A stretch of DNA of 64,000 nt from a virus (IMGVR_UViG_3300027896_005002:315488-379487); one strand, 5' to 3'; counted from the stretch's first letter, positions 1-52,809 are shown. Notes: generated from the letters alone by a model not told the origin. Translations and numbers: made by a program.

Positions 1-167
1 TTACAATACTTTACATGATTTGACCAACTTGATTTATCTTTAAACGATGTATTACACTTATCACATTTATAATCTTTATTCTGTTTATGTCTCCATCTAA
101 AATGATTTGCAAATAAAGATGATGAACTAAATGGCAATTGACATTCATCACAAAAATAATTTTCCAT
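1..167 (-). CDS. C2H2-type zinc-finger protein, partial (the gene extends past the window start)
   Basis: Minus-strand ATG at 167..165 is preceded by AGGAG. The translation is MENYFCDECQLPFSSSSLFANHFRWRHKQNKDYKCDKCNTSFKDKSSWSNHVKYC. It has two tandem C-x2-C-x12-H-x3/4-H/C fingers. This ORF is not in the supplied track because it is cut by the window edge. Confidence 0.4.
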   Translation of the reverse strand, partial: MENYFCDECQLPFSSSSLFANHFRWRHKQNKDYKCDKCNTSFKDKSSWSNHVKYC

Positions 168-182
168 TATAACTCCTTTAAA

Positions 183-274
183 CGGAAGATGAGAGAATTG
201 AACTCCCAGTCCAATTTTTATTTGGACAACTGTTTAGCAAACAGCCCCGGCGAACCATTATCCGGCTATCTTCC
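183..274 (-). tRNA. tRNA-Ser (anticodon GCU), class II with a long variable arm
   Basis: Hand-folded. Acceptor GGAAGAT/ATCTTCC is a perfect 7 bp stem. Anticodon stem GCTGT/ACAGT closes loop TTGCTAA. Variable arm is GTCCAA-ATAAAAA-TTGGAC. T-arm is GGGAG-TTCAATT-CTCTC. Discriminator is G, as expected for Ser. CCA is not encoded. Confidence 0.65.
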
Positions 275-348
275 AATTATAGAAGTTATAAAGACATAAT
301 CAATTGTATTGCAATTAATTTAACCTCTCTAAGTTTACATTTATATAA

Positions 349-623
349 TGGCTGGCTCGGAGGGTTTCGAACCCCCAACCTACTGGTTACACTTATCTAT
401 ATATTTCTATATAGCGTGGACTTTCTCTTCACCATTTTCTATTTCTAGAATTTAGGTGCACCGTGTAAAGTCTCTACACATAAGAACTTTTAGTTCTCTT
501 GCTCGGGATTGCCATAGATTTCTCTTTAGGTTTCCCCGACTTAGCGGCGAGTTCATCTAAATATTTCTATTTAGAGCTGCGTTTGACCACAGCCAGTCGC
601 TCCGCCTATTGAGCTACGAGCCA
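349..623 (-). tRNA. tRNA interrupted in the anticodon loop by a ~199 nt intervening sequence; probably tRNA-Asn(GUU) if the intron is group I-like, otherwise tRNA-His(GUG)
   Basis: The 5' exon (623..589) reads TGGCTCG-TA-GCTC...GAGC-G-ACTGG-CTGT. The 3' exon (389..349) reads TAA-CCAGT-AGGT-TGGGG-TTCGAAA-CCCTC-CGAGCCA-G-CCA. Acceptor halves are 7/7 complementary and anticodon-stem halves (ACTGG/CCAGT) are 5/5 complementary. Splicing after U35 with the intron ending in G gives loop CTGTTAA and discriminator G, as in bacterial tRNA-Asn. Confidence 0.55.
390..588 (-). other. Intervening sequence (candidate group I-like intron) inside the tRNA anticodon loop
   Basis: 199 nt lie between two perfectly matching tRNA halves. 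The upstream exon ends in U and the intron ends in G, which is consistent with group I rules. It contains short hairpins such as GTGTAaagtctcTACAC. P/Q/R/S cores could not be verified by eye. Confidence 0.4.
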
Positions 624-665
624 GTAATTTGTACAATTTCAAAGAACATAACTTCGAAAATAATA

Positions 666-741
666 TGGTGGGCGCACTCCGAGTCGAACGGAGATAAGAA
701 GATTTTCAGTCTTCCGCCTTGTCCGCGTTGGCAATACACCC
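666..741 (-). tRNA. tRNA-Phe (anticodon GAA)
   Basis: Hand-folded. Acceptor GGGTGTA/TGCGCCC includes 2 GU pairs. Anticodon arm is GAAGA-CTGAAAA-TCTTC. T-arm is CTCCG-TTCGACT-CGGAG. Discriminator is A and CCA is encoded. Confidence 0.75.
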
Positions 742-771
742 ATATTTTCAAAGATCATTTATACTCAAAAT

Positions 772-810
772 AAAAAAGGCTCCATCAACATTTGTTGGTG
801 GAGCCTTTTT
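772..810. terminator. Bidirectional rho-independent terminator-like hairpin
   Basis: AAAAAA-GGCTCCA-(14 nt loop)-TGGAGCC-TTTTT. The A-run and T-run flank a 7 bp GC-rich stem. Confidence 0.5.
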
Positions 811-1518
811 ATAAATAATCGCCGATTATTTATTTAAGCAAACTCCACCAATTCGTTTTTGCTATTAAAGCAAAAACTACTAAACATGTTATTATTACAT
901 GTTTTGGTGTAGTTTTTCATTATTTCCTCTTAAAATTAAAGTTGGCTGGCGACCCATATTCAACATCGACTTGTGATCTTCATTTTCGCCAGCTAAACCT
1001 GAAGAATAAATTCGATGTTATTAAATGGTTTTATTATAAGGCGCCCTACTTTGGGCGCCATTTTCCTCAGCTTATACCCTACGACTTAGTAGGTTGATTC
1101 TTTCGAATCTCTCAAAATTTACGCAATTATAAATATAATATAAAAAAACTATTTTGTACAATTATTTGTAGGAATATAAATCCAACATAATAAAACAAAG
1201 CTGACTACTTCTATTGTTGGTAATAAATGTTCCATAGTTTATATAATCACTTATTTATCGAAGAATGGCCTATAATCAATCTTCGAATCACTTTCTATAA
1301 TTTTCCAATCACTTCCTCTTTTTTTAGAAGTTTTTTCAATCTTGCCATTATTCTTTAAAGTAATAAGGTTTGACCAGGTTAATCCATAATCAGCAAATGC
1401 CATTGGATTTTGTTCTTTTTATAAAAGAATTTATCAAAAATCAAATAAGAGAGATAATCTATGACTCCCAAGAGAATAAAAGAAGTTTTCATTTTTTATC
1501 CTTTGGTTTGTGGTAAAA

Positions 1519-1596
1519 TCAGCGGGGGTGGCTTCGAACCACCGCACTCCTCCATGTTTTAGAGGTGCTCTGATAATCCAGCTGAGCTACCCGCCG
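1519..1596 (-). tRNA. tRNA with canonical acceptor and T arms but an atypical D/anticodon region; anticodon unresolved
   Basis: Acceptor CGGCGGG/CCCGCTG. T-arm GGTGG-TTCGAAG-CCACC. D-stem GCTC/GAGC has a 13-nt loop. Anticodon arm is CCTCT-AAAACAT-GGAGG and lacks U33. Discriminator is A. The fold is 78 nt. Confidence 0.45.
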
Positions 1597-1604
1597 TTAT
1601 ATTT

Positions 1605-1781
1605 TTATATTCAATAAAAAGTCGAAGATTGGTCTTTAATCTCAATTTTAGCTAATCTTCTAGCTCTTTTCTTTGACTTTCCATTGTGGTATTCTTTTTC
1701 CCACCAATTTACATAGCCTTTTGGAGGATGATTATCGGGCATATTTGCAGGATGCTGAGGTTGTAGTCCATATTTTTTCAT
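1605..1781 (-). CDS. small hypothetical protein (58 aa), not in the supplied ORF track
   Basis: Its ATG overlaps the TGA of the upstream gene (ATGA) at 1778-1781. The translation is MKKYGLQPQHPANMPDNHPPKGYVNWWEKEYHNGKSKKRARRLAKIEIKDQSSTFY. It lies in the same minus-strand operon. Confidence 0.3.
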
Positions 1782-2051: not shown

Positions 2052-2852
2052 TCAACGATCCTTTTTTAAAAATGACTTTAAAGACTCATTGATATTATTC
2101 TCACAATCAACCCAATTACAATATTTACAATGATCACCTCTATTTTTCTCAAATTTATTATTTTCAATTGCATCAAACATCTTTTCTACTTCATTTGATA
2201 CAATCATATAATCTTCATCTTTTACTACAATGTCTATAATCTTATTCTCTTTTTTAGATGGATGTACAAATCTTACTTTCTCTTCCACAAGACCATACCT
2301 TTTGTACAAGGCCCAACTATAAATTAATCCTTGCATTCTATATTTCTCTACATCATGTTTTCCTGTTTTCCAATCTAAAATATTGAGACATCCATGTGAC
2401 TCAATAACTAAATCCATGAACCCATGCATATTTATTTCAAATCTTTTATTATTATATGGTAATAAAAATTCTAATTCAATTCCTTTTTTGCCGTCATTAA
2501 AAAGATAAACTTCATGTAACCAATCATGTTCTTTGGCCATTGCTACCCAGTTTTTGATCATTGTAAATCCAGTAGCTTTACTATATTTTAATTCTAATTG
2601 TTCTGCTTGTTGTTGTTTTGTTTCAATATCAAAAAATTTGGGCCAATTCTCAAATAATGTTTTAGTATTGCTAAATCTACCGGTATTATAAAATTTTTGA
2701 AGTAATTTATGAAGAGCCTGACCAAAAACTAGATGTACACTTGGTAATCTAATAACTTGACGTTTGTCTATTTTGTCTAGTTTGAAGGCCCAAGGACAGG
2801 TAGAAAAATTATTGATTGTAGAAGCAGATAAGTTAAAATGAAGTTTTTTCAT
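2052..2852 (-). CDS. Cas4-like PD-(D/E)XK exonuclease with a 4-Cys cluster
   Basis: N-terminal Cys (STCPWAF). Motifs D-LVIE...LDWKTGK give the D/ExK arrangement. C-terminus has C-x2-C-x5-C (CKYCNWVDC). Confidence 0.6.
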   Translation of the reverse strand: MKKLHFNLSASTINNFSTCPWAFKLDKIDKRQVIRLPSVHLVFGQALHKLLQKFYNTGRFSNTKTLFENWPKFFDIETKQQQAEQLELKYSKATGFTMIKNWVAMAKEHDWLHEVYLFNDGKKGIELEFLLPYNNKRFEINMHGFMDLVIESHGCLNILDWKTGKHDVEKYRMQGLIYSWALYKRYGLVEEKVRFVHPSKKENKIIDIVVKDEDYMIVSNEVEKMFDAIENNKFEKNRGDHCKYCNWVDCENNINESLKSFLKKDR

Positions 2853-4153
2853 TTTTGTTTTGACTGTACATATTCAGTCAAATAACTTATTGCTTTTTCA
2901 TGTTTTGCAGCGGTCTCACTAGCTTTATAGTTAACTTCTTTTTTCAGATTTGCAATAATTGACTTTTTCTCTTCTTCAGACTTTTGTAATTTTGTAGTTC
3001 TGTCTTGAATAAAAGCATCAACATCTTCTTTAGATGCAGTAATATTTCTTATATCACAAATATGATCTAAAAATATTTTTGATTCAAGAGTCTTTTCTAC
3101 ACGACGTTTTGTTTGAGCATAAAAAGTACTTTTTGCGTCTTTAAATTTTTTCAAATATTCTTCTTCACTTGTTGACATACGATACAGAAATTGATTCCAT
3201 TCACCATCTAATTCTCGACCAATCATAACCTCGGGTAAAGGCTCAATTTCCGAACTACTAATACATGCAGCTATTATTCCAGATTCAAAATTATCCTGAT
3301 CAATTTTTTCATAATCTTTTATCAATTTATTTTTAATAGTAGCTTTGTACTCATCAATAGATTGTGAATTTGCAGTAGCAAGTTCTTCAATTGATTTTTT
3401 AATAGTAGCTTCTTTTTTATGAATTGTAGTTGTAAAATCCGCAAATTTGCCATTAAGATCTTTGTTATGATATTCTTGAGGAAATTGAACTTTAATTATA
3501 CCACTAACACCTATTTTCATTTGTAGTAATTGTTCTTCAAATCCAGGGATAAATTTTGTTTGACCTATGACGTATCTAAAATTTTTAGATGCACCGCCTT
3601 GGAATAATTTTCCATCAATTCGTCCTTCATAGTCCATTGTTATGACATCATCAGTTTTTAAATTATATGAATCATCGACTACTGTATATGTTGTATCTTT
3701 ACTTTGAATAGCGCTAACTTGTTGACTAACCATTTGATCAGTGATTTCAGTAACTTTCTTAGTAAAATTCACTTTGTCAATATCAAATGATAATACTTTT
3801 GGTTTCAAAAACACAGTTGCTTGAATTGCTAAAGGTACTTTATCATCAAATTGTCCAAGGACTTCAAAATCATATGCGTCAACAACAGGTAATTGTTTTT
3901 CTTCAATAGCTTTTTGATAAAGAATTGTAAAAATATTTTGATATAGTTTAAATCTGTCAAGACGTTTTTCTGCTTCAGCTCGAGGCGCATGACCTTTTCT
4001 AAAACCAGGAATTTCAATATTGGATTTTACTTTGTCGTATTCTTGATCCATTAACTCTTTTACTACAGTTGCATCTGCAATAAATTTTAATTTATGCGGC
4101 GTTGCTTGTTTTGTCAGAGTTACTTGCATTTTTTCCTCCACATAAGAAATCAA
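2849..4153 (-). CDS. tig: trigger factor (ribosome-associated chaperone/PPIase) homolog
   Basis: MQVTLTK... is followed by the GFRKGHAP ribosome-binding signature (TF: GFRxGxxP). The FKBP-like PPIase block DYEGRIDGKLFQGGASKNFRYVIGQTKFIPGFEEQ...EYHNKDLNGKFADFTTTIHKKE parallels E. coli TF IDFTGSVDGEEFEGG...MIPGFEDG...EYHAENLKGKAAKF. The true start is probably the internal Met at about 4129. Confidence 0.8.
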   Translation of the reverse strand: MISYVEEKMQVTLTKQATPHKLKFIADATVVKELMDQEYDKVKSNIEIPGFRKGHAPRAEAEKRLDRFKLYQNIFTILYQKAIEEKQLPVVDAYDFEVLGQFDDKVPLAIQATVFLKPKVLSFDIDKVNFTKKVTEITDQMVSQQVSAIQSKDTTYTVVDDSYNLKTDDVITMDYEGRIDGKLFQGGASKNFRYVIGQTKFIPGFEEQLLQMKIGVSGIIKVQFPQEYHNKDLNGKFADFTTTIHKKEATIKKSIEELATANSQSIDEYKATIKNKLIKDYEKIDQDNFESGIIAACISSSEIEPLPEVMIGRELDGEWNQFLYRMSTSEEEYLKKFKDAKSTFYAQTKRRVEKTLESKIFLDHICDIRNITASKEDVDAFIQDRTTKLQKSEEEKKSIIANLKKEVNYKASETAAKHEKAISYLTEYVQSKQK

Positions 4154-8811: not shown

Positions 8812-9318
8812 TTATTTTTGTAAAGTGAATTTAGGTAAGTCTTCAGTATTTGAGGTCTTAAATGGATCTGAAAAATTGACTCCAGATCCACCTTCAGGAT
8901 GTTTATCATGGGATAATCTATGTCGAATGACTTCAAAAATATCATGAGCTATTTTTACCATCTCAGTCACATTGTTTGAACATATTGAATAAGATTGATT
9001 CGGCAACAAATCAAATAAAATTTTTCTTACTTTATTCAAACTATCTTCAACTTCTTGATCATATCCTTTTAATTTCGACGCAGGCATTGCTATATCTATA
9101 GCATTACTGAATTGAGTTAAACCCAATCTCATAAAAGCTTCTAGTGCGGCAACCATAGCACTTGCCTGATTTTCAGTTAACTCTAAAACATATTTGCCTC
9201 TTGATTGTACAAATGGACATTCTTCAGCACCACGAATAAAAAACTCAGTTGGCACAGTGTAACCATATGGGCATTGATTTTTCATTTTATCATCCATCAA
9301 TACTAATTCCTTCTCCAT
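8812..9318 (-). CDS. hypothetical protein
   Basis: 168 aa, directly downstream of and overlapping the RtcB gene. No archease motifs were seen. Confidence 0.4.
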   Translation of the reverse strand: MEKELVLMDDKMKNQCPYGYTVPTEFFIRGAEECPFVQSRGKYVLELTENQASAMVAALEAFMRLGLTQFSNAIDIAMPASKLKGYDQEVEDSLNKVRKILFDLLPNQSYSICSNNVTEMVKIAHDIFEVIRHRLSHDKHPEGGSGVNFSDPFKTSNTEDLPKFTLQK

Positions 9319-10630
9319 CTTTCATATTATGAATTGGTTTAATTTTATCCAAAATAATAGCTGTTGGCGCTATTGCTTCTTCAATTATTCTTGCGTCCTT
9401 ATAAGCATTAGGAGCTTCATCCAAAGTGCTTCTACCAACGGATGTTGAAAATACAGCTGTCATCTGTTTTTTGAATTCATCTATATTAAGTTCTCTTTTA
9501 GCTTGTGATCGACTCATCACACGCCCAGCTCCATGCGGTGCCGAAAAATTCCATTCAGGATTTGATTGACCTTCACAAAGTAAAATACCATCACGCATAT
9601 TAAAAGGAATAATCATCTTCTCATTTTTATATGATCGAATAGCACCTTTACGTATAATAAAATCATTAAAATCAATGAAATTATGTATGGTCTCAATCAT
9701 TTCTAAAGGCGTTACCTTTAAAATATCAGTGATGATATTCATCATGTATAAACGATTAGTATGAGCATATAATTGACAAAAAATCATATCAAACAAATAT
9801 CCTGCCATGTCTTCATTTTCTAACCACATCAATTCTTCAGGACATTTAATTGTAGGTTGTTCACCTTTTTTTGCTTCCTGAATTTTATGATAAAGTTCAT
9901 CACCTTTATATTGTTGACGTAATTCAATTATTTTATTTTGTATATCTTCTCTTGTCGTTTTCTTCAATTTCTTAATAGCTTTGTTTTGCCAATATTCACA
10001 AACCTTCTTACCAAAATTTCTTGAACCAGAATGTATTGTTATCCAAACATCACCTTTTGTTGACACTCCGGTTTCAATAAAATGATTACCACCGCCTAAT
10101 GTTCCAACACTATCAATAACTCTTTTAAAATTAGCTTCAAGAATTTTACATTTTTGAGTAAGCCAGTCAATATCATATTTTTCCAATTCATACGTAATAC
10201 CCACACGACTATTAAAAGCAGCAAAAAATTTCTGTGCTAATACATTGGCATCATGCCATGGAAAATCATTTTTCATATGAATTACAGATCTTTCATGAAC
10301 ATTTTGCCCAAATGGTACTCGCTGACGAATCTTTCGATCAAATTCATCTAATGATATATCTAACTTTTTCCCAATATTACAAGTCAACATACCGCATGAT
10401 ACATCAACACCAACAACATTCGGCACAATTTTATCAGTTAATTCCATTGTAAATCCGATAACACTACCTTTACCTGCATGAGTATCAGGCATAATTGCTA
10501 CAGGATTTGTAAACACTGGATTATTGATAAATTGAGTGATTTGACCGACACAAGTTTCTTCAACATTGTCGATCATTATTTTTGCGTTTGTATATTTTCC
10601 ATTCATTTGTATCATATTTAATATAATCAT
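9290..10630 (-). CDS. rtcB: RtcB-family RNA 3'-phosphate/2',3'-cyclic phosphate ligase
   Basis: MPDTHAGKGSVIGF...GGNHFIE...GSRNFG...SAPHGAGR are the hallmark RtcB metal- and GTP-binding motifs. Confidence 0.85.
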   Translation of the reverse strand: MIILNMIQMNGKYTNAKIMIDNVEETCVGQITQFINNPVFTNPVAIMPDTHAGKGSVIGFTMELTDKIVPNVVGVDVSCGMLTCNIGKKLDISLDEFDRKIRQRVPFGQNVHERSVIHMKNDFPWHDANVLAQKFFAAFNSRVGITYELEKYDIDWLTQKCKILEANFKRVIDSVGTLGGGNHFIETGVSTKGDVWITIHSGSRNFGKKVCEYWQNKAIKKLKKTTREDIQNKIIELRQQYKGDELYHKIQEAKKGEQPTIKCPEELMWLENEDMAGYLFDMIFCQLYAHTNRLYMMNIITDILKVTPLEMIETIHNFIDFNDFIIRKGAIRSYKNEKMIIPFNMRDGILLCEGQSNPEWNFSAPHGAGRVMSRSQAKRELNIDEFKKQMTAVFSTSVGRSTLDEAPNAYKDARIIEEAIAPTAIILDKIKPIHNMKDGEGISIDG

Positions 10631-21701: not shown

Positions 21702-23168
21702 ATGAAACATTTAGCAAAAATACAATCTGAATTTATTAAATCTGCATTAACCAAGGCAGATATAAATTTGTCTGTAGTGGCTACTTCTCAAAATCAACTA
21801 ATGTTTTTTACTAAAGAACAAAGCAAGCATTTCAATGATTTCATTGGTGAAAAAAATGAATTAAACGTTAGACATAATGCTAACAATTCAATAATATATG
21901 TTGGCTGTGGTAATGAAAATCAAATCACTCAACATGTTATTCGTAGTGCTACATCATTCGGCATTCAAAAAGCACAACATTTAAACTGGCAAAAAATATC
22001 TGTTATTATTCCACCGTGGTTTAATAATACATATAAATATGCGTGTATAGAAGGAACATTACTTGGGTCATATATTTTTGATGAATATAGATCAATAAAA
22101 AAGCCAAAAATTTTAATAGAAATTGTTGATAAAGATTTTTCCACTGAACAATTGGAAGAAATTAAAATAATTTGTAATTGTACAAATTATGCTAGAGATC
22201 TTACAAACAGAAATGCAAGTGATAAATATCCTGAGAAATATGCCGAAGAAATTAGTAATCTTTTTTCAAAATACAATGTAACAATTAATATTTTAACAGA
22301 AAAAGAAATTGTAGAAAAAGGACTAGGTCTTTTAAATGCTGTTAGTAGTGGTTCACCAAAACCTCCTCGATTAATTATTCTCCAATATAAAGGTAATCCT
22401 ACATCAAAAGAAAATATTGCTATTATAGGCAAGGGCATCATATTTGACACTGGTGGACTAGATCTCAAAGAAGAAAATATGAAATATATGCGAAGAGATA
22501 TGGCTGGCAGTGCAGTAGTTGCTGCATTAATGAAAGCTATTTGCGAATTAAAAATGCAAATAAATATTACTGGAGTGATGCCATTATCTTATAATTCAGT
22601 CGACGCAAAATCATATCTTCCTGGTGATATTTATAAATCATATGATGGAAAAACAGTTCAAATTGATAATACTGACGCTGAAGGTCGATTAGTTCTTGCA
22701 GATGCTATTGCTTATTGTAAAAAGAATTATAATCCAACAATGATAATTGATGTTGCAACATTAACAAAAGCCGTTTCAACTGCATTAGGTAAAATCGCTG
22801 CTGGTCTATTTAGTAATGATGATGATTTAGCTAAAAATTTAATAGAAGCCGGTTTAAGAACCAATGAAAAATTATGGCGTTTACCATTATATAAAGAATA
22901 TGAAGAATCTATTCGTAGTGATCTTGCAGATTTAAAAAATTCTGATGAATATGAACAAGCAAAATCTGCTATGGGTGCTGCTTTCCTTAAACAATTCGTT
23001 GGACAAACTCCATGGGCACATCTTGATATTGCAGGTGTAGCTTACATTGAAAGATTAGGCGATGCACCAGAACATTTATCTCATGGTGAAGATCCTCATT
23101 ATGCTACAGGTTTTGGCGTTAGATTATTATGGCAATATCTTAAAAATAAAATAAGGATTACTAAATGA
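21702..23168 (+). CDS. pepA: M17 leucyl aminopeptidase carrying the N-terminal MKHLAKIQSEFIK module
   Basis: NTDAEGRLVLADAIAY is the M17 signature. VMPLSYNSV and DVATLT are the surrounding conserved blocks. Confidence 0.85.
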   Translation: MKHLAKIQSEFIKSALTKADINLSVVATSQNQLMFFTKEQSKHFNDFIGEKNELNVRHNANNSIIYVGCGNENQITQHVIRSATSFGIQKAQHLNWQKISVIIPPWFNNTYKYACIEGTLLGSYIFDEYRSIKKPKILIEIVDKDFSTEQLEEIKIICNCTNYARDLTNRNASDKYPEKYAEEISNLFSKYNVTINILTEKEIVEKGLGLLNAVSSGSPKPPRLIILQYKGNPTSKENIAIIGKGIIFDTGGLDLKEENMKYMRRDMAGSAVVAALMKAICELKMQINITGVMPLSYNSVDAKSYLPGDIYKSYDGKTVQIDNTDAEGRLVLADAIAYCKKNYNPTMIIDVATLTKAVSTALGKIAAGLFSNDDDLAKNLIEAGLRTNEKLWRLPLYKEYEESIRSDLADLKNSDEYEQAKSAMGAAFLKQFVGQTPWAHLDIAGVAYIERLGDAPEHLSHGEDPHYATGFGVRLLWQYLKNKIRITK

Positions 23169-32459: not shown

Positions 32460-32665
32460 TTGATATCTCCGTGTTTATGTATTTGAATAGCTCTTTCTTG
32501 AGCTAATGCTTTTTCTTTAGAAGGATGTCGACCTAATAATTTTTTTCCTTTACTGTCATACAAACAAAATTTACTTGGTTTGCCTTTTTTCTTATCCTTT
32601 TGTGGACATTTCCTGATTATTGATTCTTTGACAAATTCAGATTGTATTTGCTGTAAATGTTTCAT
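32456..32665 (-). CDS. small basic protein with the N-terminal MKHLQQIQSEFVKE module (internal-protein-like)
   Basis: 69 aa and K/R-rich. It has an ATGA overlap with the upstream FtsK-like gene. Confidence 0.5.
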   Translation of the reverse strand: MKHLQQIQSEFVKESIIRKCPQKDKKKGKPSKFCLYDSKGKKLLGRHPSKEKALAQERAIQIHKHGDIK

Positions 32666-34935
32666 TTACCTAATAATCCTTTTAATAAATTTAATCTGTC
32701 CAAAAAATGTTTCTTTTTAGTTTGCATATTCTTTCTAACATCTTCAGCTGACACTGTTCTTGACAATTCATTAATTTCTTTTTGAGTATCATCATCAACT
32801 GAAGATTCAGGTTCTTCTTCTGGTTCTTCAACTTCCGGTTCTTCACTTAATAATTTTTTTCTTTCTTCTTCTTTTTTAGCAATTTCTTCTTCACGTCTTT
32901 TTTGTTGTTCATTTCTTTCTTTTTGAGTAATATCACTTTTAGAAATTTCTTCTTCAGTTCCAGTATCTCCAAGTATTTCTTTTATTCGTTTTCGTCTAGC
33001 TTCAATTTGTTTTTTAATATTTGAATATTCATCTTCTGGTTCTTGTTTTTCAATTTCTTCTTTTGGTATTGTAGTTGATTCTTCTTTTGGTTTTATGGAT
33101 TGCAAAAGATCTTGTTTTCCTTGACTCTTTTCACTAAATTTAGTTGATTCATTACCAGAAACAAAACCTGATTGAAATCTCTTTTTCGGTTGACCCTCAG
33201 CAGCATAAAAAGCATCACCGTGACTTAATAAATCAGTAGCATCTGGTAAATCTACACTTTCAGCATCTGCATGTTGATTCAAATGTAATATGACTTTTGA
33301 CCCTAAATTTGCTTGTAATTGTCTAGGTATTGCTTTTAATGCAGGTGATTGAGTTGCCAATATAATATTTATACCCGATTGTCTTGCAACAGCAAGCATG
33401 TCATCTATATAACCTTTAATTTTACTTGCATTTTTATTTACTTCTGGATTTAATAAACTTTTAACCTCATCTGCAACTAAAAATATTTGAGGTATAACTT
33501 TTCTTTCTTCAGGTGCTAATTTTTCAAATGCTACTTTTTCTTCTTCAGTTTTATCTTTTTTATCAATAAATGCATTAAATGACTGTGTATCTTTGAATGT
33601 TAATCCTGATTTTTTGCTTAATTCTTGTATTTTCTTAAATCTATTTCCACTTTCCTTGTGCAAATTCTGTAATGATTTAATTGCACTATTTTCATCTTTT
33701 GCAACAGGATCAGCTAAATATTTACTTCCGTCATATAAACCAAATTCATTACCTTTTTTTGCAACATCTAACATAACAAATTTAACATGATCAGAATCCT
33801 GCGTTGCCATTAATGAATTAACCATAGAATTAATAAATACTGATTTTCCGGAACCAGTTCCTCCTGCAACTAGCATGTGAGGATTTACTTTAAAATCATG
33901 TATGATTACTTCACCATTAGCATCTTTACCAAAAGGTACAACTAATTTTTTAGGATTACTTGACTCATTAACAAACTTGTCACTTGTTAATATATCTTTC
34001 AAATATACAGTATCACGATTTGCATCATCTTTTGGAACTTCAATATTAACCATTCCTGATTTTCTATCTTCAGATATGATTACATCTCGATCTTTCCCAA
34101 CCATTGAACTAATAATATTTTTTCCATCATTACTTAATAACCATCTAGTACCTTTAACTTTTGCAACATCATCATCAAATTTTATTTTAAATGTCATAGA
34201 ATTAGGTGCGTTAGTTGCCTCGGCTATATTAGAACCTTTAATGTTTGCAGCAGTAAATGATCTACGAATAGCATCAACTGAATGATCAACTTCTTCTATA
34301 CTGCCCTTTGACGGTGGCGGAGGATCATTTAAAAAACTAATATCATTTTTTAATTTACCTTCATTTGCTTTAATTCTATCATTTTTTTGTTGATATTGTT
34401 CAGTTTTGTCACCTGCTTTATCTAATTCTATTTTTTTCTGATTAATAATTTGTTCTTCAACTTTGTCACTCTTGATTTCATTATTAATTGCTTTATCCGT
34501 TGGTTTATTTTTTAATTCTGTCTTTTTAGCATCAAGCTTTTCCTTTAATTTAGGCTGTTTCTGTTCTCGCTTTATTTTCTTAAGTTCTTCTCTTTGCTTC
34601 TTTAATTTTTCCTGCAATTTTGTTAATTTATCTTCTCGTTTAGTAACAGAACTTACTCCTGAAACGCCTGTGCCTTTCCACTGTTTGTACAACTCTCTAA
34701 ACAATCGTTGTTGAGGAGAATTTTTATCATAACCCTTTAACGATTTTATTTTGATACGTGGCTTTTTAGCTTTTAAATCGGGATTTCTAACTTCTCTCTC
34801 TCCCATTTCTTTCAAAAAACTACCAAGATCACCTTTACTGGGCGATAAAACACGAGGCGTTTTAATAGTAGCTGCATCTTTACGAGTATATAACTCTGTC
34901 ATAAACTCATTTTGTACTAAATCAAAATGTTTCAA
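32662..34935 (-). CDS. FtsK/SpoIIIE-family ATPase with an N-terminal MKHFDLVQNEF module and K/E-rich low-complexity arms
   Basis: Walker A is LVAGGTGSGKS. Walker B is IFLVADE. ILATQSP matches the FtsK ATQRP motif. The N- and C-terminal regions are charged and repetitive. Confidence 0.65.
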   Translation of the reverse strand: MKHFDLVQNEFMTELYTRKDAATIKTPRVLSPSKGDLGSFLKEMGEREVRNPDLKAKKPRIKIKSLKGYDKNSPQQRLFRELYKQWKGTGVSGVSSVTKREDKLTKLQEKLKKQREELKKIKREQKQPKLKEKLDAKKTELKNKPTDKAINNEIKSDKVEEQIINQKKIELDKAGDKTEQYQQKNDRIKANEGKLKNDISFLNDPPPPSKGSIEEVDHSVDAIRRSFTAANIKGSNIAEATNAPNSMTFKIKFDDDVAKVKGTRWLLSNDGKNIISSMVGKDRDVIISEDRKSGMVNIEVPKDDANRDTVYLKDILTSDKFVNESSNPKKLVVPFGKDANGEVIIHDFKVNPHMLVAGGTGSGKSVFINSMVNSLMATQDSDHVKFVMLDVAKKGNEFGLYDGSKYLADPVAKDENSAIKSLQNLHKESGNRFKKIQELSKKSGLTFKDTQSFNAFIDKKDKTEEEKVAFEKLAPEERKVIPQIFLVADEVKSLLNPEVNKNASKIKGYIDDMLAVARQSGINIILATQSPALKAIPRQLQANLGSKVILHLNQHADAESVDLPDATDLLSHGDAFYAAEGQPKKRFQSGFVSGNESTKFSEKSQGKQDLLQSIKPKEESTTIPKEEIEKQEPEDEYSNIKKQIEARRKRIKEILGDTGTEEEISKSDITQKERNEQQKRREEEIAKKEEERKKLLSEEPEVEEPEEEPESSVDDDTQKEINELSRTVSAEDVRKNMQTKKKHFLDRLNLLKGLLGK

Positions 34936-50900: not shown

Positions 50901-52040
50901 ATTACTATTACTTTCACTATCAGATCCTTCTTGCGTCGGCCTTATATTTGTTACCTGAAATTGTGTAAATGTAGAGTTTGTAATTGTGCCAGCATCAACA
51001 TTTGTTATAGAGCCTGTTTGAACAGATTGTACTGGAGCAGTTACTTCATATCGTTGTGTAGCTTCATTAAAATATTGATCAATTGAAGATATCAACATTT
51101 TAGCTTCAGCCAATGTTTGAAAATTTATGGCAGGCACTGTTGATGTTGCTGTCGTTGACACAATAGTATTTAACGGTACAGTTATTGTTGCTGTTGGTTT
51201 TATTATAGTATAAAAAACAACTTCACCTATAGATCCAGTTGCAGGCTCTCTAAATGTTTGACTATTTGCTGCAAGTTTGTCAAAAGAAAAATCAATCAAA
51301 CTTTGTACATCTGCATCTACAGTTAAATGTAATGCTGCCTTTAACTGTTGTTTATATACAGAATTTGATACACTGATTGATGATCCAGTATTATTAGGAT
51401 CATCAATATTTAACAACGTTAGAAAAGATTGTGACCTCAAAAGAAAATCAATATAAATGTATAAATCACCATAATTAGCAGCATGTGGATCAATATGAAT
51501 GTCTCTAGTCATTGTACCAGGTTTAACATCAAGATCAGGATATCTATCAAGCATTCGACCAATCATTGTTTGAGCTACATCACTTGTAGATCTAACAGGA
51601 AAATCAACAATACTTGATGTTATTATTATTGGTACATCGCTTATTTCAATAGAAAATAAACTTTCTTCATTACCATTATTAACAGCAGTAATTACATAAT
51701 ATTGTCGTCTATTATCAACAAGCCCGCTATGAGTATAAGCATAAATTGATATATTTTGAAAGTCTTCAACTGTTGTTGTAGTTTTTACACCACCTATTAC
51801 TTGTACTGTAGTTGTAGAATCAATCACTTTTTGAACAACACTATTCACAACTGTAATTAATTCATTATTTAATTTAGCATATCCACTAACACCACCACCA
51901 GAAGTAGTGGCATTATAAATATTATAACCTTTAATATCAGTTTCAGGATTGGCATCCCATTTTATGATGACTGCATTTCCTGATGATTCTGTAAATAGAC
52001 CGGTAGGCTGTGAAGGTCTAGACATGAAATGTCCTTTCAA
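47994..52040 (-). CDS. giant structural protein (1348 aa) with an N-terminal FN3 domain and both repeat families
   Basis: PSQPTGL...VIIKWDANPETDIKGYNIYN is FN3-like. It has copies of the SY(D/N)..TG.LVVN.TS..GSGS..PW repeat and of the TGD.V...G.LP.PL...YYVI repeat. Confidence 0.45.
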   Translation of the reverse strand: MKGHFMSRPSQPTGLFTESSGNAVIIKWDANPETDIKGYNIYNATTSGGGVSGYAKLNNELITVVNSVVQKVIDSTTTVQVIGGVKTTTTVEDFQNISIYAYTHSGLVDNRRQYYVITAVNNGNEESLFSIEISDVPIIITSSIVDFPVRSTSDVAQTMIGRMLDRYPDLDVKPGTMTRDIHIDPHAANYGDLYIYIDFLLRSQSFLTLLNIDDPNNTGSSISVSNSVYKQQLKAALHLTVDADVQSLIDFSFDKLAANSQTFREPATGSIGEVVFYTIIKPTATITVPLNTIVSTTATSTVPAINFQTLAEAKMLISSIDQYFNEATQRYEVTAPVQSVQTGSITNVDAGTITNSTFTQFQVTNIRPTQEGSDSESNSNLAFRAMLAFTGLDIGTLDGYLRTTIGVQYVQDVLVVDAGHPLMQRDYDIVRKQHAYGKVDIYFKGFSEISYTDTFGFVYNGVIDETVVVVVASLPVQWRIQVINPDVSIDDPVYLIQMIENITKSKLYDLTGNFTIKRNAVILPKDQYSMDLITGEMTFDTPLSFGDQIVADYDYKVAITNETVIVLDPQTIQTINNPVALFSEIIYGSRTNNFVVGNLTTSNTIVSISTGLQTVITNDLNLMFSVDEVIELKYDDTHKMQGAVTSYDVMTGILVVNVTSTAGSGSFNPWTISTVGFPVSVITITTGERHIFRTGDKVLVSSPSGILPAPLVADIGYYVICSRLTETGTRQLKLATTIENALAGVAIGFVDAGFGSLVITPDTKVTLVKDLDYTIDYSTGIVTINSALTTQRFYNTFIAVGDMLTADYKYVTTVLNEVVIASASGGEITALLSHDNVVEAILIEADGKTININTHNAINSTIGLLSTDIVRMTYRYRKSPPIIFSNQPVDTIVSIVTANGTVLQEGSGYTFNKVDDILIEGNSVRSQRSVTLLYNPSTGMPEGQLYDFSENVVLAGLDYKSLNKKGIDEHTIVVTDLTQTITYELNNDYLILSAETPFNYVQIARSNTSSISTGQTVIVSYKYGEQMTATYTVNSLIKTIQDKINVSRHVTADVLVKAANQIDVDLEFNVKLATGANTPVVKDQLSTKLFTIFDQKKMGDRISQSDVVAVIDDSADVDYVSLPMTTMKISDGVHIANEVIPNSINWFIYQVGNAIVYKTLAGILRYKTLGSSSDISKFWRVTKDNVDLTLVATPDDVKTFANQAYISSDGSIYLSVNYQQEVVAATDINIVNNTILVSQVWETGTKVQFISTGSLPDPLLPLTDYYVIFLNNIYIRIASSLANAQSGIAIPFINQGTGNHTIVSQISSSVTNFNVTVAYNVHGESGANDIIVSDLDYLNLKSLIINII

Positions 52041-52809
52041 CTATTTTATTTCTAATTTTTCTTGTTATAATCAATGTCTTAATAATTTTAGATAATTTTT
52101 TTCCTTTTTTTGATTCACCAATTTTTCTTTTTGTTTCTTCAGATAATTTTTTTCCTTTTCTTGACTCACTAATTTTTTTCCTAGCTTCTTCAGACATTTT
52201 TTTACCTTTTTTTGATTCACTAATTTTTCTTCTAGTTTCATCAGAACATGGTCTATTATAAAAATTAGGATTGTTTTTTCTTGTTTCATTCATTTTTCTT
52301 TTCACTTCATCTGAAAGATGTTTACCAAATAAATAATGATTTTCACCTTTATTTGATTCACTTATTTTCTTTCTAGTCTTTTTTGAATGATGCTTGCCAA
52401 ACATTGGATGATTTTTACCTGACTTTATTTCACTTAATTTCTTTTTATGCTCTTCAGTAAATTTCCTACCCTTTGATGCTATACTTAATTTTTTTCTAGT
52501 TTCTTCTGATATTATTTTACCCTTACCACCTTCATTTAAGTTATAACCTTTTTGTGGATTCATAGTATTATGCATTTTTATAAAATACTGTTCAGCTTTA
52601 TCTAAAGTAGAGTTGTCTAAAGTATTACATTTTATACTCCACTCAAATTTATCAAACCCATACTTTCTAAGAGCTCTATGAAAATAAAGATCATCATTTT
52701 TCATAGCATCTTTAAAATGTTGAATCCTTCGTTTTTCTAAAGTTCTAGTAGTCTGACCAAAATAAAGTTTTCCGTTTATTTTATTTTTAACTTGATAAAT
52801 TATAGACAT
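52018..52809 (-). CDS. GIY-YIG homing endonuclease with NUMOD3-like DNA-binding repeats
   Basis: IYQVKNKINGKLYFGQTTRTLEKRRIQHF is the GIY...YFG motif. Five SEETRKKISESKKGK-type NUMOD3-like repeats follow. It is inserted between two giant structural genes. Confidence 0.75.
   Translation of the reverse strand: MSIIYQVKNKINGKLYFGQTTRTLEKRRIQHFKDAMKNDDLYFHRALRKYGFDKFEWSIKCNTLDNSTLDKAEQYFIKMHNTMNPQKGYNLNEGGKGKIISEETRKKLSIASKGRKFTEEHKKKLSEIKSGKNHPMFGKHHSKKTRKKISESNKGENHYLFGKHLSDEVKRKMNETRKNNPNFYNRPCSDETRRKISESKKGKKMSEEARKKISESRKGKKLSEETKRKIGESKKGKKLSKIIKTLIITRKIRNKIVERTFHV

Follow-up and report, generated by a model that had tools for sequence, protein, structure and literature searches.

An interrupted tRNA gene in a viral contig

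The subject of this analysis is a tRNA gene split by a 199-nt insert, which lies on the minus strand of a 64,000-nt stretch of viral DNA (IMGVR_UViG_3300027896_005002:315488-379487; this whole stretch is referred to below as the window), and which we interpret as a tRNA-Asn(GUU) gene interrupted within its anticodon by a self-splicing group I intron. The two halves of the tRNA occupy 623..589 and 389..349, with the insert at 588..390. Read along the minus strand from 623 to 589, the sequence runs UGGCUCG-UA-GCUC…GAGC-G-ACUGG-CUGU up to the insert; from 389 to 349 it resumes as UAA-CCAGU-AGGUU-GGGGG-UUCGAAA-CCCUC-CGAGCCA-G-CCA. Between the halves the acceptor stem (7/7) and the anticodon stem (5/5) are fully paired, and the terminal CCA is encoded at 351..349. 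An earlier note on this DNA had described a split tRNA with an insert of about 199 nt at 349-623, and its coordinates, stem pairing, CCA and length are all borne out by ARAGORN, which in intron mode locates the split gene directly (349..623, 199-nt intron). When the 199 nt are removed in silico, the same program returns a canonical 76-nt cloverleaf, with a 4-bp D stem, a 5-bp T stem (one G-U pair), a TTCGAAA T loop and a discriminator G. The parts of the locus are as follows.

589..623, minus strand: predicted exon 1 of tRNA-Asn(GUU), tRNA positions 1-35 (UGGCUCG, D arm, ACUGG, C32 U33 G34 U35); ARAGORN, with the 5' site from the Rfam and R1 alignments (R1 is the family covariance model described below)
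390..588, minus strand: group I intron of 199 nt without an open reading frame (ORF); RF00028 match, hand fold P1-P9, minimum free energy (MFE) z of -4.3, stops in six frames
349..389, minus strand: predicted exon 2 of tRNA-Asn, positions 36-76 (U36 A37 A38, CCAGU, variable loop, T arm, CGAGCCA, G352, CCA at 351..349); sequence and ARAGORN
666..741, minus strand: tRNA-Phe(GAA), upstream neighbor
182..275, minus strand: tRNA-Ser(GCU), downstream neighbor

The tRNA-Phe, the split tRNA-Asn and the tRNA-Ser are presumably co-transcribed, and no terminator-like site was found on the minus strand of the insert. The roughly 900 nt that lie upstream of the tRNA cluster (window 742-1672) hold GC-rich hairpins, for example at 1040-1059; this interval contains no ORF of ≥60 aa and no Rfam family at threshold.

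A group I intron core within the insert

A search of positions 150..1200 with the Rfam group I model (Intron_gpI, RF00028), a check that the earlier note had proposed for this locus, does find a group I core: the full model (positions 1-253) aligns at 598..397 on the minus strand with 55.2 bits and E = 4.6e-13, above the curated gathering cut-off of 50 bits. Folded by hand, the insert and its flanking exon bases accommodate P1, P2, P3, P4, P5, P6, P7, P8 and P9 with standard pairs only. The elements of this fold, all on the minus strand, are listed here with the evidence for each.

575..594: P1 hairpin, GGCUGU/G (594..588, the slash marking the splice site) paired with the internal guide sequence CGCAGCU (581..575); Rfam alignment and hand fold
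557..574: P2, 7-bp hairpin with a GAAA tetraloop (567..564); hand fold and MFE
545..549: P3 5' strand CGCCG, pairing with CGGUG at 463..459; hand fold
503..539: P4-P5 domain (P4 539..534/508..503, P5 530..529/513..512); Rfam, hand fold, family alignment and MFE
478..502: P6/P6a hairpin (502..501/479..478 and 498..493/487..482); hand fold
467..472: P7 5' strand GACUUU, pairing with AAAGUC at 424..419; hand fold and unconstrained MFE
430..463: P3 3' strand (463..459), then P8/P8a (458..455/433..430 and 450..446/441..437); hand fold, family alignment and MFE
419..424: P7 3' strand AAAGUC, preceded by J8/7 UGAAGAG; hand fold
397..414: P9, 7-bp hairpin with a GAAA tetraloop (407..404); hand fold
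390..390: terminal guanosine (omega-G), with the predicted 3' splice site between G390 and U389; sequence and register

In this fold P1 comprises seven pairs, including the splice-site wobble U589·G580; P5 carries a tetraloop-receptor-like motif (CCUAAA at 530..525 opposite UAUGG at 516..512); the P7 helix, which forms the guanosine-binding pocket, is pseudoknotted with P3; and a 7-nt tail after P9 ends in G390. An unconstrained MFE fold recovers P1, P2, P4, P5, P6a, P7, P8 and P9, and none of 200 shuffled sequences folds as well as the intron. Because stop codons fall in all six frames, the intron encodes no homing endonuclease. A search of the window with model R1, run with its filters off, found no second copy.

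Conservation in a viral relative and across the intron family

A three-block core pattern search matched 13 viral loci, and one scan each of metagenome and genome collections added 86 further loci. The most informative is L002 (IMGVR_UViG_3300035659_001474, 128 kb), a viral contig in which a homologous tRNA is split at the same position by a 200-nt intron and the tRNA order Phe - Asn(split) - Ser is kept. Given this shared order and an Rfam match above the cut-off, the split gene is not a product of chance. The two introns differ in 23 of 216 aligned columns, 14 of which are unpaired. Among the paired positions, an A-U in P6a has become G-C and two U-A pairs in P9 have become C-G, with both sides changed and pairing kept; the other paired changes are one C-G to U-G and one that arises from an indel in P8a. 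In the exons, judged by eye, compensatory swaps occur at acceptor pairs 5-68 and 6-67 and at anticodon-stem pair 27-43. Such substitutions are what one would expect if both the ribozyme and the tRNA around it were functional and under selection. The same L002 cluster also holds a tRNA with a CUA anticodon (L002:1022-1096, minus strand; an amber suppressor, ARAGORN 'Pyl'), which hints at TAG recoding in that contig.

The covariance model R1 was built from four sequences on the hand fold, and 91 introns from the fetched loci were aligned to it, with pairing statistics taken from the 83 distinct rows. Across this family, 93.4% of cells are paired, as against 63.4% in shuffles and ≤49% when partners are slid, and both-side changes occur at 40/46 pairs; these counts are inflated, the alignment having been fitted to the model, and the margin is large nonetheless. 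Double changes are seen at all seven pairs of P2, and P3 covaries at 5/5 pairs with 97% of cells paired. In a separate test of P7, 83% of cells are paired vs 76.5% in shuffles. The splice-site column of P1 is U·G in 53 of the 83 sequences.

Split tRNA-Asn genes with the intron at the same site also occur in the viral locus L137, for which ARAGORN itself gives Asn(gtt) i(35,197), and in the metagenome locus L099. Two pattern matches were set aside: L047 is a different intron beside an HNH-like ORF, and L136 matches by chance within a coding sequence. A syntenic relative of the window, L138, has no tRNA cluster.

Membership in a published class of tRNA-Asn introns

Introns of this kind have been catalogued and, recently, brought to the bench. 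Williams listed 21 tRNA/intron settings (Williams, 2020; bioRxiv 10.1101/2020.01.27.920355), which, as relayed in a later paper, include one designated 'Asn.4Ug' (PMC13011429). In that later study, introns between positions 35 and 36 of tRNA-Asn(GUU) were found to self-splice in vitro, and the spliced product was sequenced (Nakagawa et al., 2026, mSystems; PMC13011429). The same authors report that 35/36 introns are strongly enriched in Patescibacteria, and that ARAGORN and tFind often mis-call them, by a two-base shift, as Thr(UGU) introns at 33/34 (PMC13011429).

The gene spliced in vitro, from GCA_016700035.1, reads …GUUGGCUGU/uaaaggcagcc…caggug/UAACCAA… across its junctions (slashes again marking splice sites; PMC13011429, supplementary table). 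The window is the same at the junction, UGGCUGU/…GUG/UAACCA, which is to say in seven exon bases before the intron, six after it and the GUG tail, and both genes have the guide sequence GCAGC. With the published 35/36 class more broadly the window shares a P9 hairpin with a GAAA loop and, after it, a short tail whose last base is G, the U1-A72/G73/CCA configuration of the tRNA, and the ARAGORN mis-call. On the other hand, global identity between the window intron and the validated one is only 60%, and the former is 199 nt long vs 234 nt for the latter, which has extra sequence between P7 and P8. The carriers differ as well: the published 35/36 cases lie on bacterial chromosomes, mainly of Patescibacteria, and the window belongs to a phage-like 416-kb contig. 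The window intron is thus a member of a class that was catalogued in 2020 and experimentally validated in 2025/26, and it leaves knowledge of the mechanism unchanged. What is modestly new is the setting alone, probably a phage-borne copy.

Splice register and proposed mechanism

The group I rule that the 5' exon ends in U and the intron in G is satisfied by two registers. In register A the cut follows U589 and the last intron base is G390, giving the anticodon loop CUGUUAA, the anticodon Asn(GUU) and an insertion at 35/36; in register B the cut follows U591 and the last intron base is G392, giving CUUGUAA, Thr(UGU) and an insertion at 33/34. In both the Rfam and the R1 models it is U589, not U591, that occupies the conserved U·G column of P1. 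With the 5' site after U589, only G390 yields a tRNA-Asn cloverleaf with the identified anticodon stem and a 7-nt loop. The body of the tRNA points the same way: it has U1-A72 together with G73, a combination present in 12/26 tRNA-Asn, 0/25 tRNA-Thr and 0/11 tRNA-His among the intron-less tRNAs of the fetched loci. The spliced anticodon arm, GACUGGCUGUUAACCAGU, has exact matches in 33 viral loci, nearly all of them tRNA-Asn genes. Isotyping by similarity of the tRNA body outside the anticodon arm was tried and proved uninformative, the best matches being spread over Val, Lys, Gly, Phe and Asn.

From these features of the sequence we infer that the gene is tRNA-Asn(GUU), with the intron between U35 and U36. 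This agrees with one of the options in the earlier note, a group I intron that ends in G, with an exon ending in U35, in a tRNA-Asn(GUU) with discriminator G; the covariance match, the U·G pair in P1, the conserved fold, the identity elements and a junction shared with a spliced homologue all uphold it. The other register raised there, that of tRNA-His(GUG), is disfavored: it calls for no U(-1) and no terminal G in the intron, and the tRNA lacks both the G at -1 (C624 stands there) and the C at position 73 (which is a G).

On this basis, 623..349 of the minus strand would be one tRNA-Asn(GUU) gene with a 199-nt, ORF-less group I ribozyme, folded into a P1-P9 core, between U35 and U36 of its anticodon. 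P1 would arise from pairing of the guide sequence (581..575) with tRNA positions 30-35, so that U589 falls in the U·G wobble, and a free guanosine held in the P7 pocket would attack after U589. G390 would then take its place in the pocket, and the 3'-OH of U589 would attack the bond between G390 and U389, so that the exons would be joined with the loop CUGUUAA and the intron released, with no protein endonuclease or ligase required. The ligated product would read …GGCUGUUAACC…. We put the probability of this reading as a whole, namely a self-splicing intron of group I at 35/36 of tRNA-Asn(GUU) that acts independently of RtcB (an RNA ligase encoded elsewhere in the window), at roughly 0.88. The window copy is very probably self-splicing, a prediction that draws on its sequence; guanosine-dependent self-splicing has been demonstrated for the homologue with the identical junction (PMC13011429).

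Competing explanations

Several observations count against this reading, among them the inflated pair counts and the second permissible register noted above. The RF00028 score is only 5 bits over the cut-off, and Rfam scans of the whole 64-kb window, in both gathering and E-value modes, missed the intron. We attribute this miss to speed filters, the match appearing only when about 1 kb is searched; cmscan of full-length windows could likewise overlook group I introns elsewhere. In P8 the receptor motif is degenerate, and the P10 that can be drawn is weak (3/4 possible pairs), although the anticodon stem holds tRNA introns together. An intron-less allele that would mark the empty site has no match in the viral contigs. 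The slender Rfam score and the degenerate P8 receptor, together with the want of a homing endonuclease and the frequent dispensability of phage tRNA genes, could also be read as signs of a decayed, non-splicing remnant in a tRNA pseudogene. We consider decay quite improbable, in that every core helix is intact, the differences from L002 lie in loops or are matched by compensating changes, both in the intron and (by inspection) in the tRNA stems, and introns in other tRNA genes have the very same P7, J8/7 and P3 segments. Still less probable is a tRNA-Thr(UGU) holding the same 199-nt intron two bases over, with exon 1 ending at U591 and the intron at 590..392 (site 33/34). This is what ARAGORN reports in intron mode, Thr(tgt) i(34,199), and it satisfies the U/G rule; moreover, the closest intron cores found sit in genuine tRNA-Thr(UGU) genes (L131 and L077, with 71% and 70% global identity). 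It would, however, place a Watson-Crick pair, U591-A578, where the conserved wobble should be, and it would require a Thr tRNA with the U1-A72 and G73 elements that none of the 25 tRNA-Thr possesses. The genuine intron-bearing Thr genes L131 and L077 have G1-C72, U73 and an intron at 36/37. The two-base mis-call is, moreover, documented, and was disproved by sequencing the spliced product of the gene with the identical junction (PMC13011429).

The remaining explanation for the insert is removal by proteins, in which an endonuclease would cut at a bulge-helix-bulge and the phage's RtcB would join the halves. The earlier note had raised this possibility on account of an RtcB gene in the window, and that gene is genuine.

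9290..10630, minus strand: RtcB RNA ligase gene (Pfam PF01139, E = 1e-62)

RtcB is the ligase of endonuclease-dependent tRNA splicing in archaea and eukaryotes, and here it is encoded 9 kb away on the same strand. Group I splicing, by contrast, proceeds through two transesterifications that ligate the exons, and leaves no 3'-phosphate/5'-OH break for RtcB to join. The bulge-helix-bulge search at the junctions that had been suggested is negative: run exhaustively over two geometries and four splice registers, it gave 0 strict and 0 relaxed (hBH/HBh') matches. The insert holds a complete group I core, and Pfam scans of 38 of the larger ORFs in the window, itself 64 kb of a 416-kb contig, turned up no tRNA-intron endonuclease family. 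Of 50,697 GenBank phage records, 642 contain RtcB homologues, most of them from phages that infect Mycobacterium, Bacillus and Listeria, so that one near a tRNA cluster is unremarkable; none lies in the fetched flanks of the other tRNA-intron loci. Protein-dependent splicing of this insert is thus not supported, and we regard it as hardly credible. The group I intron would not need RtcB, and nothing links the two; the presence of RtcB alongside phage tRNAs would more simply reflect general tRNA repair and supply.

The carrier of the intron

Two assemblies made independently, ENA ERZ27247850 and JGI 3300003852, carry the 1.7-kb tRNA region at 100% identity; together with the window's RtcB protein this region is found on a 415,903-bp ENA contig (ERZ27247850 k141_2484546) and on a 39-kb JGI contig, and a third dataset, SRR5272259, holds the structural region. 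Because the same sequence recurs in separate datasets, an assembly artefact is unlikely.

That the contig is a huge phage is very likely. The window encodes a baseplate wedge protein (PHROG 6, 6e-19; Pfam Baseplate_J, 4e-14), products matching tail-fiber and tail-protein PHROGs, and a GIY-YIG endonuclease, and a Phage_endo_I family gene lies just outside it. The syntenic relatives L138 and L002 are both in IMG/VR, the best GenBank-phage match of the RtcB is a 735-kb uncultured phage, and ribosomal and aminoacyl-tRNA synthetase genes are absent from the 64 kb. The alternative, that the contig comes from a small-genome bacterium, for example a member of the Patescibacteria, in which case the setting would not be new, we judge unlikely. 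It draws some force from the strong enrichment of 35/36 introns in that group (PMC13011429), from a G+C content of 29%, from the failure to see a capsid or an unambiguous terminase in the window, and from a set of cellular-type genes: a full-length trigger factor, an M17 leucyl aminopeptidase and an FtsK/SpoIIIE-like ATPase (2849-4153, 21702-23168, 32662-34935), with DnaB and a DnaC-like loader also encoded. The trigger factor has a syntenic counterpart, 50% identical, in the viral contig L138. As a separate observation, the GIY-YIG endonuclease is a free-standing homing endonuclease with NUMOD3 (52018-52809, minus strand), which slightly overlaps the flanking genes for a 1348-aa baseplate-wedge protein and a 498-aa tail-module protein.

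Relation to other group I introns

Introns of the Azoarcus type (IC3) interrupt tRNA-Ile(CAU), tRNA-Arg(CCU), tRNA-Leu(UAA) and tRNA-fMet. The window intron is like them in architecture: about 200 nt without an ORF, placed in the anticodon loop, with P1 formed with the anticodon stem-loop, GAAA loops on P2 and P9, and receptors of the CCUAAG/UAUGG type in P5 and P8. The core blocks GAAACCUAA…UAUGGCAA…GUAGAGACU are common to both. It differs in its site, which is 35/36 rather than 36/37, 34/35 or 33/34, in its host tRNA, and in the degeneracy of its P8 receptor. A further contrast of subgroup, IC3 versus IA, was considered and dropped: 25/28 published 35/36 introns are assigned to IA (PMC13011429), and the published IA clade also holds Azoarcus-type hosts (tRNA-Ile2 introns).

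The most similar cores found belong to metagenome introns at 36/37 of tRNA-Thr(UGU) (L131, L077/L132 and L074/L101), which have 70-71% global identity to the window intron and share with it the 30-nt identical block GUGUAGAGACUUUACACGGUGCACCUAAAU; both 5' exons end in …UGU. These genes differ in having a G1-C72, U73 tRNA, a site one nucleotide over and other P1, P2, P6 and P9 sequences. A hop between the Thr and Asn sites by way of the common UGU suggests itself from these sequences, but is just a lead, because the margin of identity is small (70-71% vs 65-67% for other Asn introns).

Group I introns have long been familiar from phages, the classical cases being T4 td/nrdB/nrdD, SPO1 DNA polymerase, Twort and Jug phage. 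These are, like the window intron, group I ribozymes on phage (or phage-like) genomes; they interrupt protein-coding genes. According to a 2014 review, every group I intron known from phages at that time lay in a protein-coding gene, numerous as phage tRNA genes are (PMC3984707). A preprint on Lak megaphages described unclassified 'enigmatic' tRNA introns, which it called a first for phages (Devoto et al., bioRxiv 356790); here, too, tRNA genes are interrupted on a huge phage, one being reported as 'tRNA Thr(TGT)'. In our literature search, incomplete in coverage, no paper was seen to describe group I introns explicitly in the tRNA genes of phages. Against GenBank phages, blastn searches with the tRNA region and with a 25-kb part of the window returned nothing close; relaxing the E value brought up just 40-nt core matches to introns of protein genes and matches to T arms. 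The window itself is absent both from the GenBank phage records and from the IMG/VR contigs searched.

Among viral contigs, tRNA group I introns were found at 35/36 of tRNA-Asn (window, L002, L137), 36/37 of tRNA(CAU), 36/37 of tRNA-Arg(UCU) and 34/35 of tRNA-Leu(UAA). Interrupted tRNA genes seem recurrent in such contigs, with examples at L003:2345-2548, L005:2879-3084, L011:6239-6426 and L137:13651-13921. In the 204-kb viral contig L009, a tRNA-Arg(UCU) split by a 36/37 group I intron and a GOLLD RNA (RF02032, 165 bits) are some 6 kb apart.

L009:1207-1645 and L009:7370-7588: GOLLD RNA and split tRNA-Arg(UCU)

The query matches in L059 (a contig labeled 'Bacteroidales MAG', that is, metagenome-assembled genome) and in L126 are identical to those of L009, and may represent the same element. 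Among L048-L133, many related introns sit at 33/34 of tRNA-Phe(GAA) in MAG and metagenome contigs of Patescibacteria and Peregrinibacteria, and other related introns lie outside tRNA genes.

Implications

The split gene is one that ARAGORN at its default settings and whole-window Rfam searches miss, or that is misnamed tRNA-Thr. Analyses of the phage's tRNA repertoire and codon supply would be wrong for that reason. From the window and its viral relatives it appears that the inserts in interrupted tRNA genes of phages are, in some cases at least, ordinary group I introns of the self-splicing kind, and phage-borne copies would offer a plausible horizontal route for tRNA introns that lack homing endonucleases. 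A broader conjecture, which we advance tentatively and think doubtful as it stands, is that group I introns have repeatedly colonized the tRNA genes of large phages, and that phage tRNA clusters could carry endonuclease-less introns between bacterial phyla; the closeness of the tRNA-Thr(UGU) cores would then reflect a site-hop by reverse splicing through a 3-nt match. If this were true, a phage vehicle would explain the patchy distribution of the 35/36 introns.

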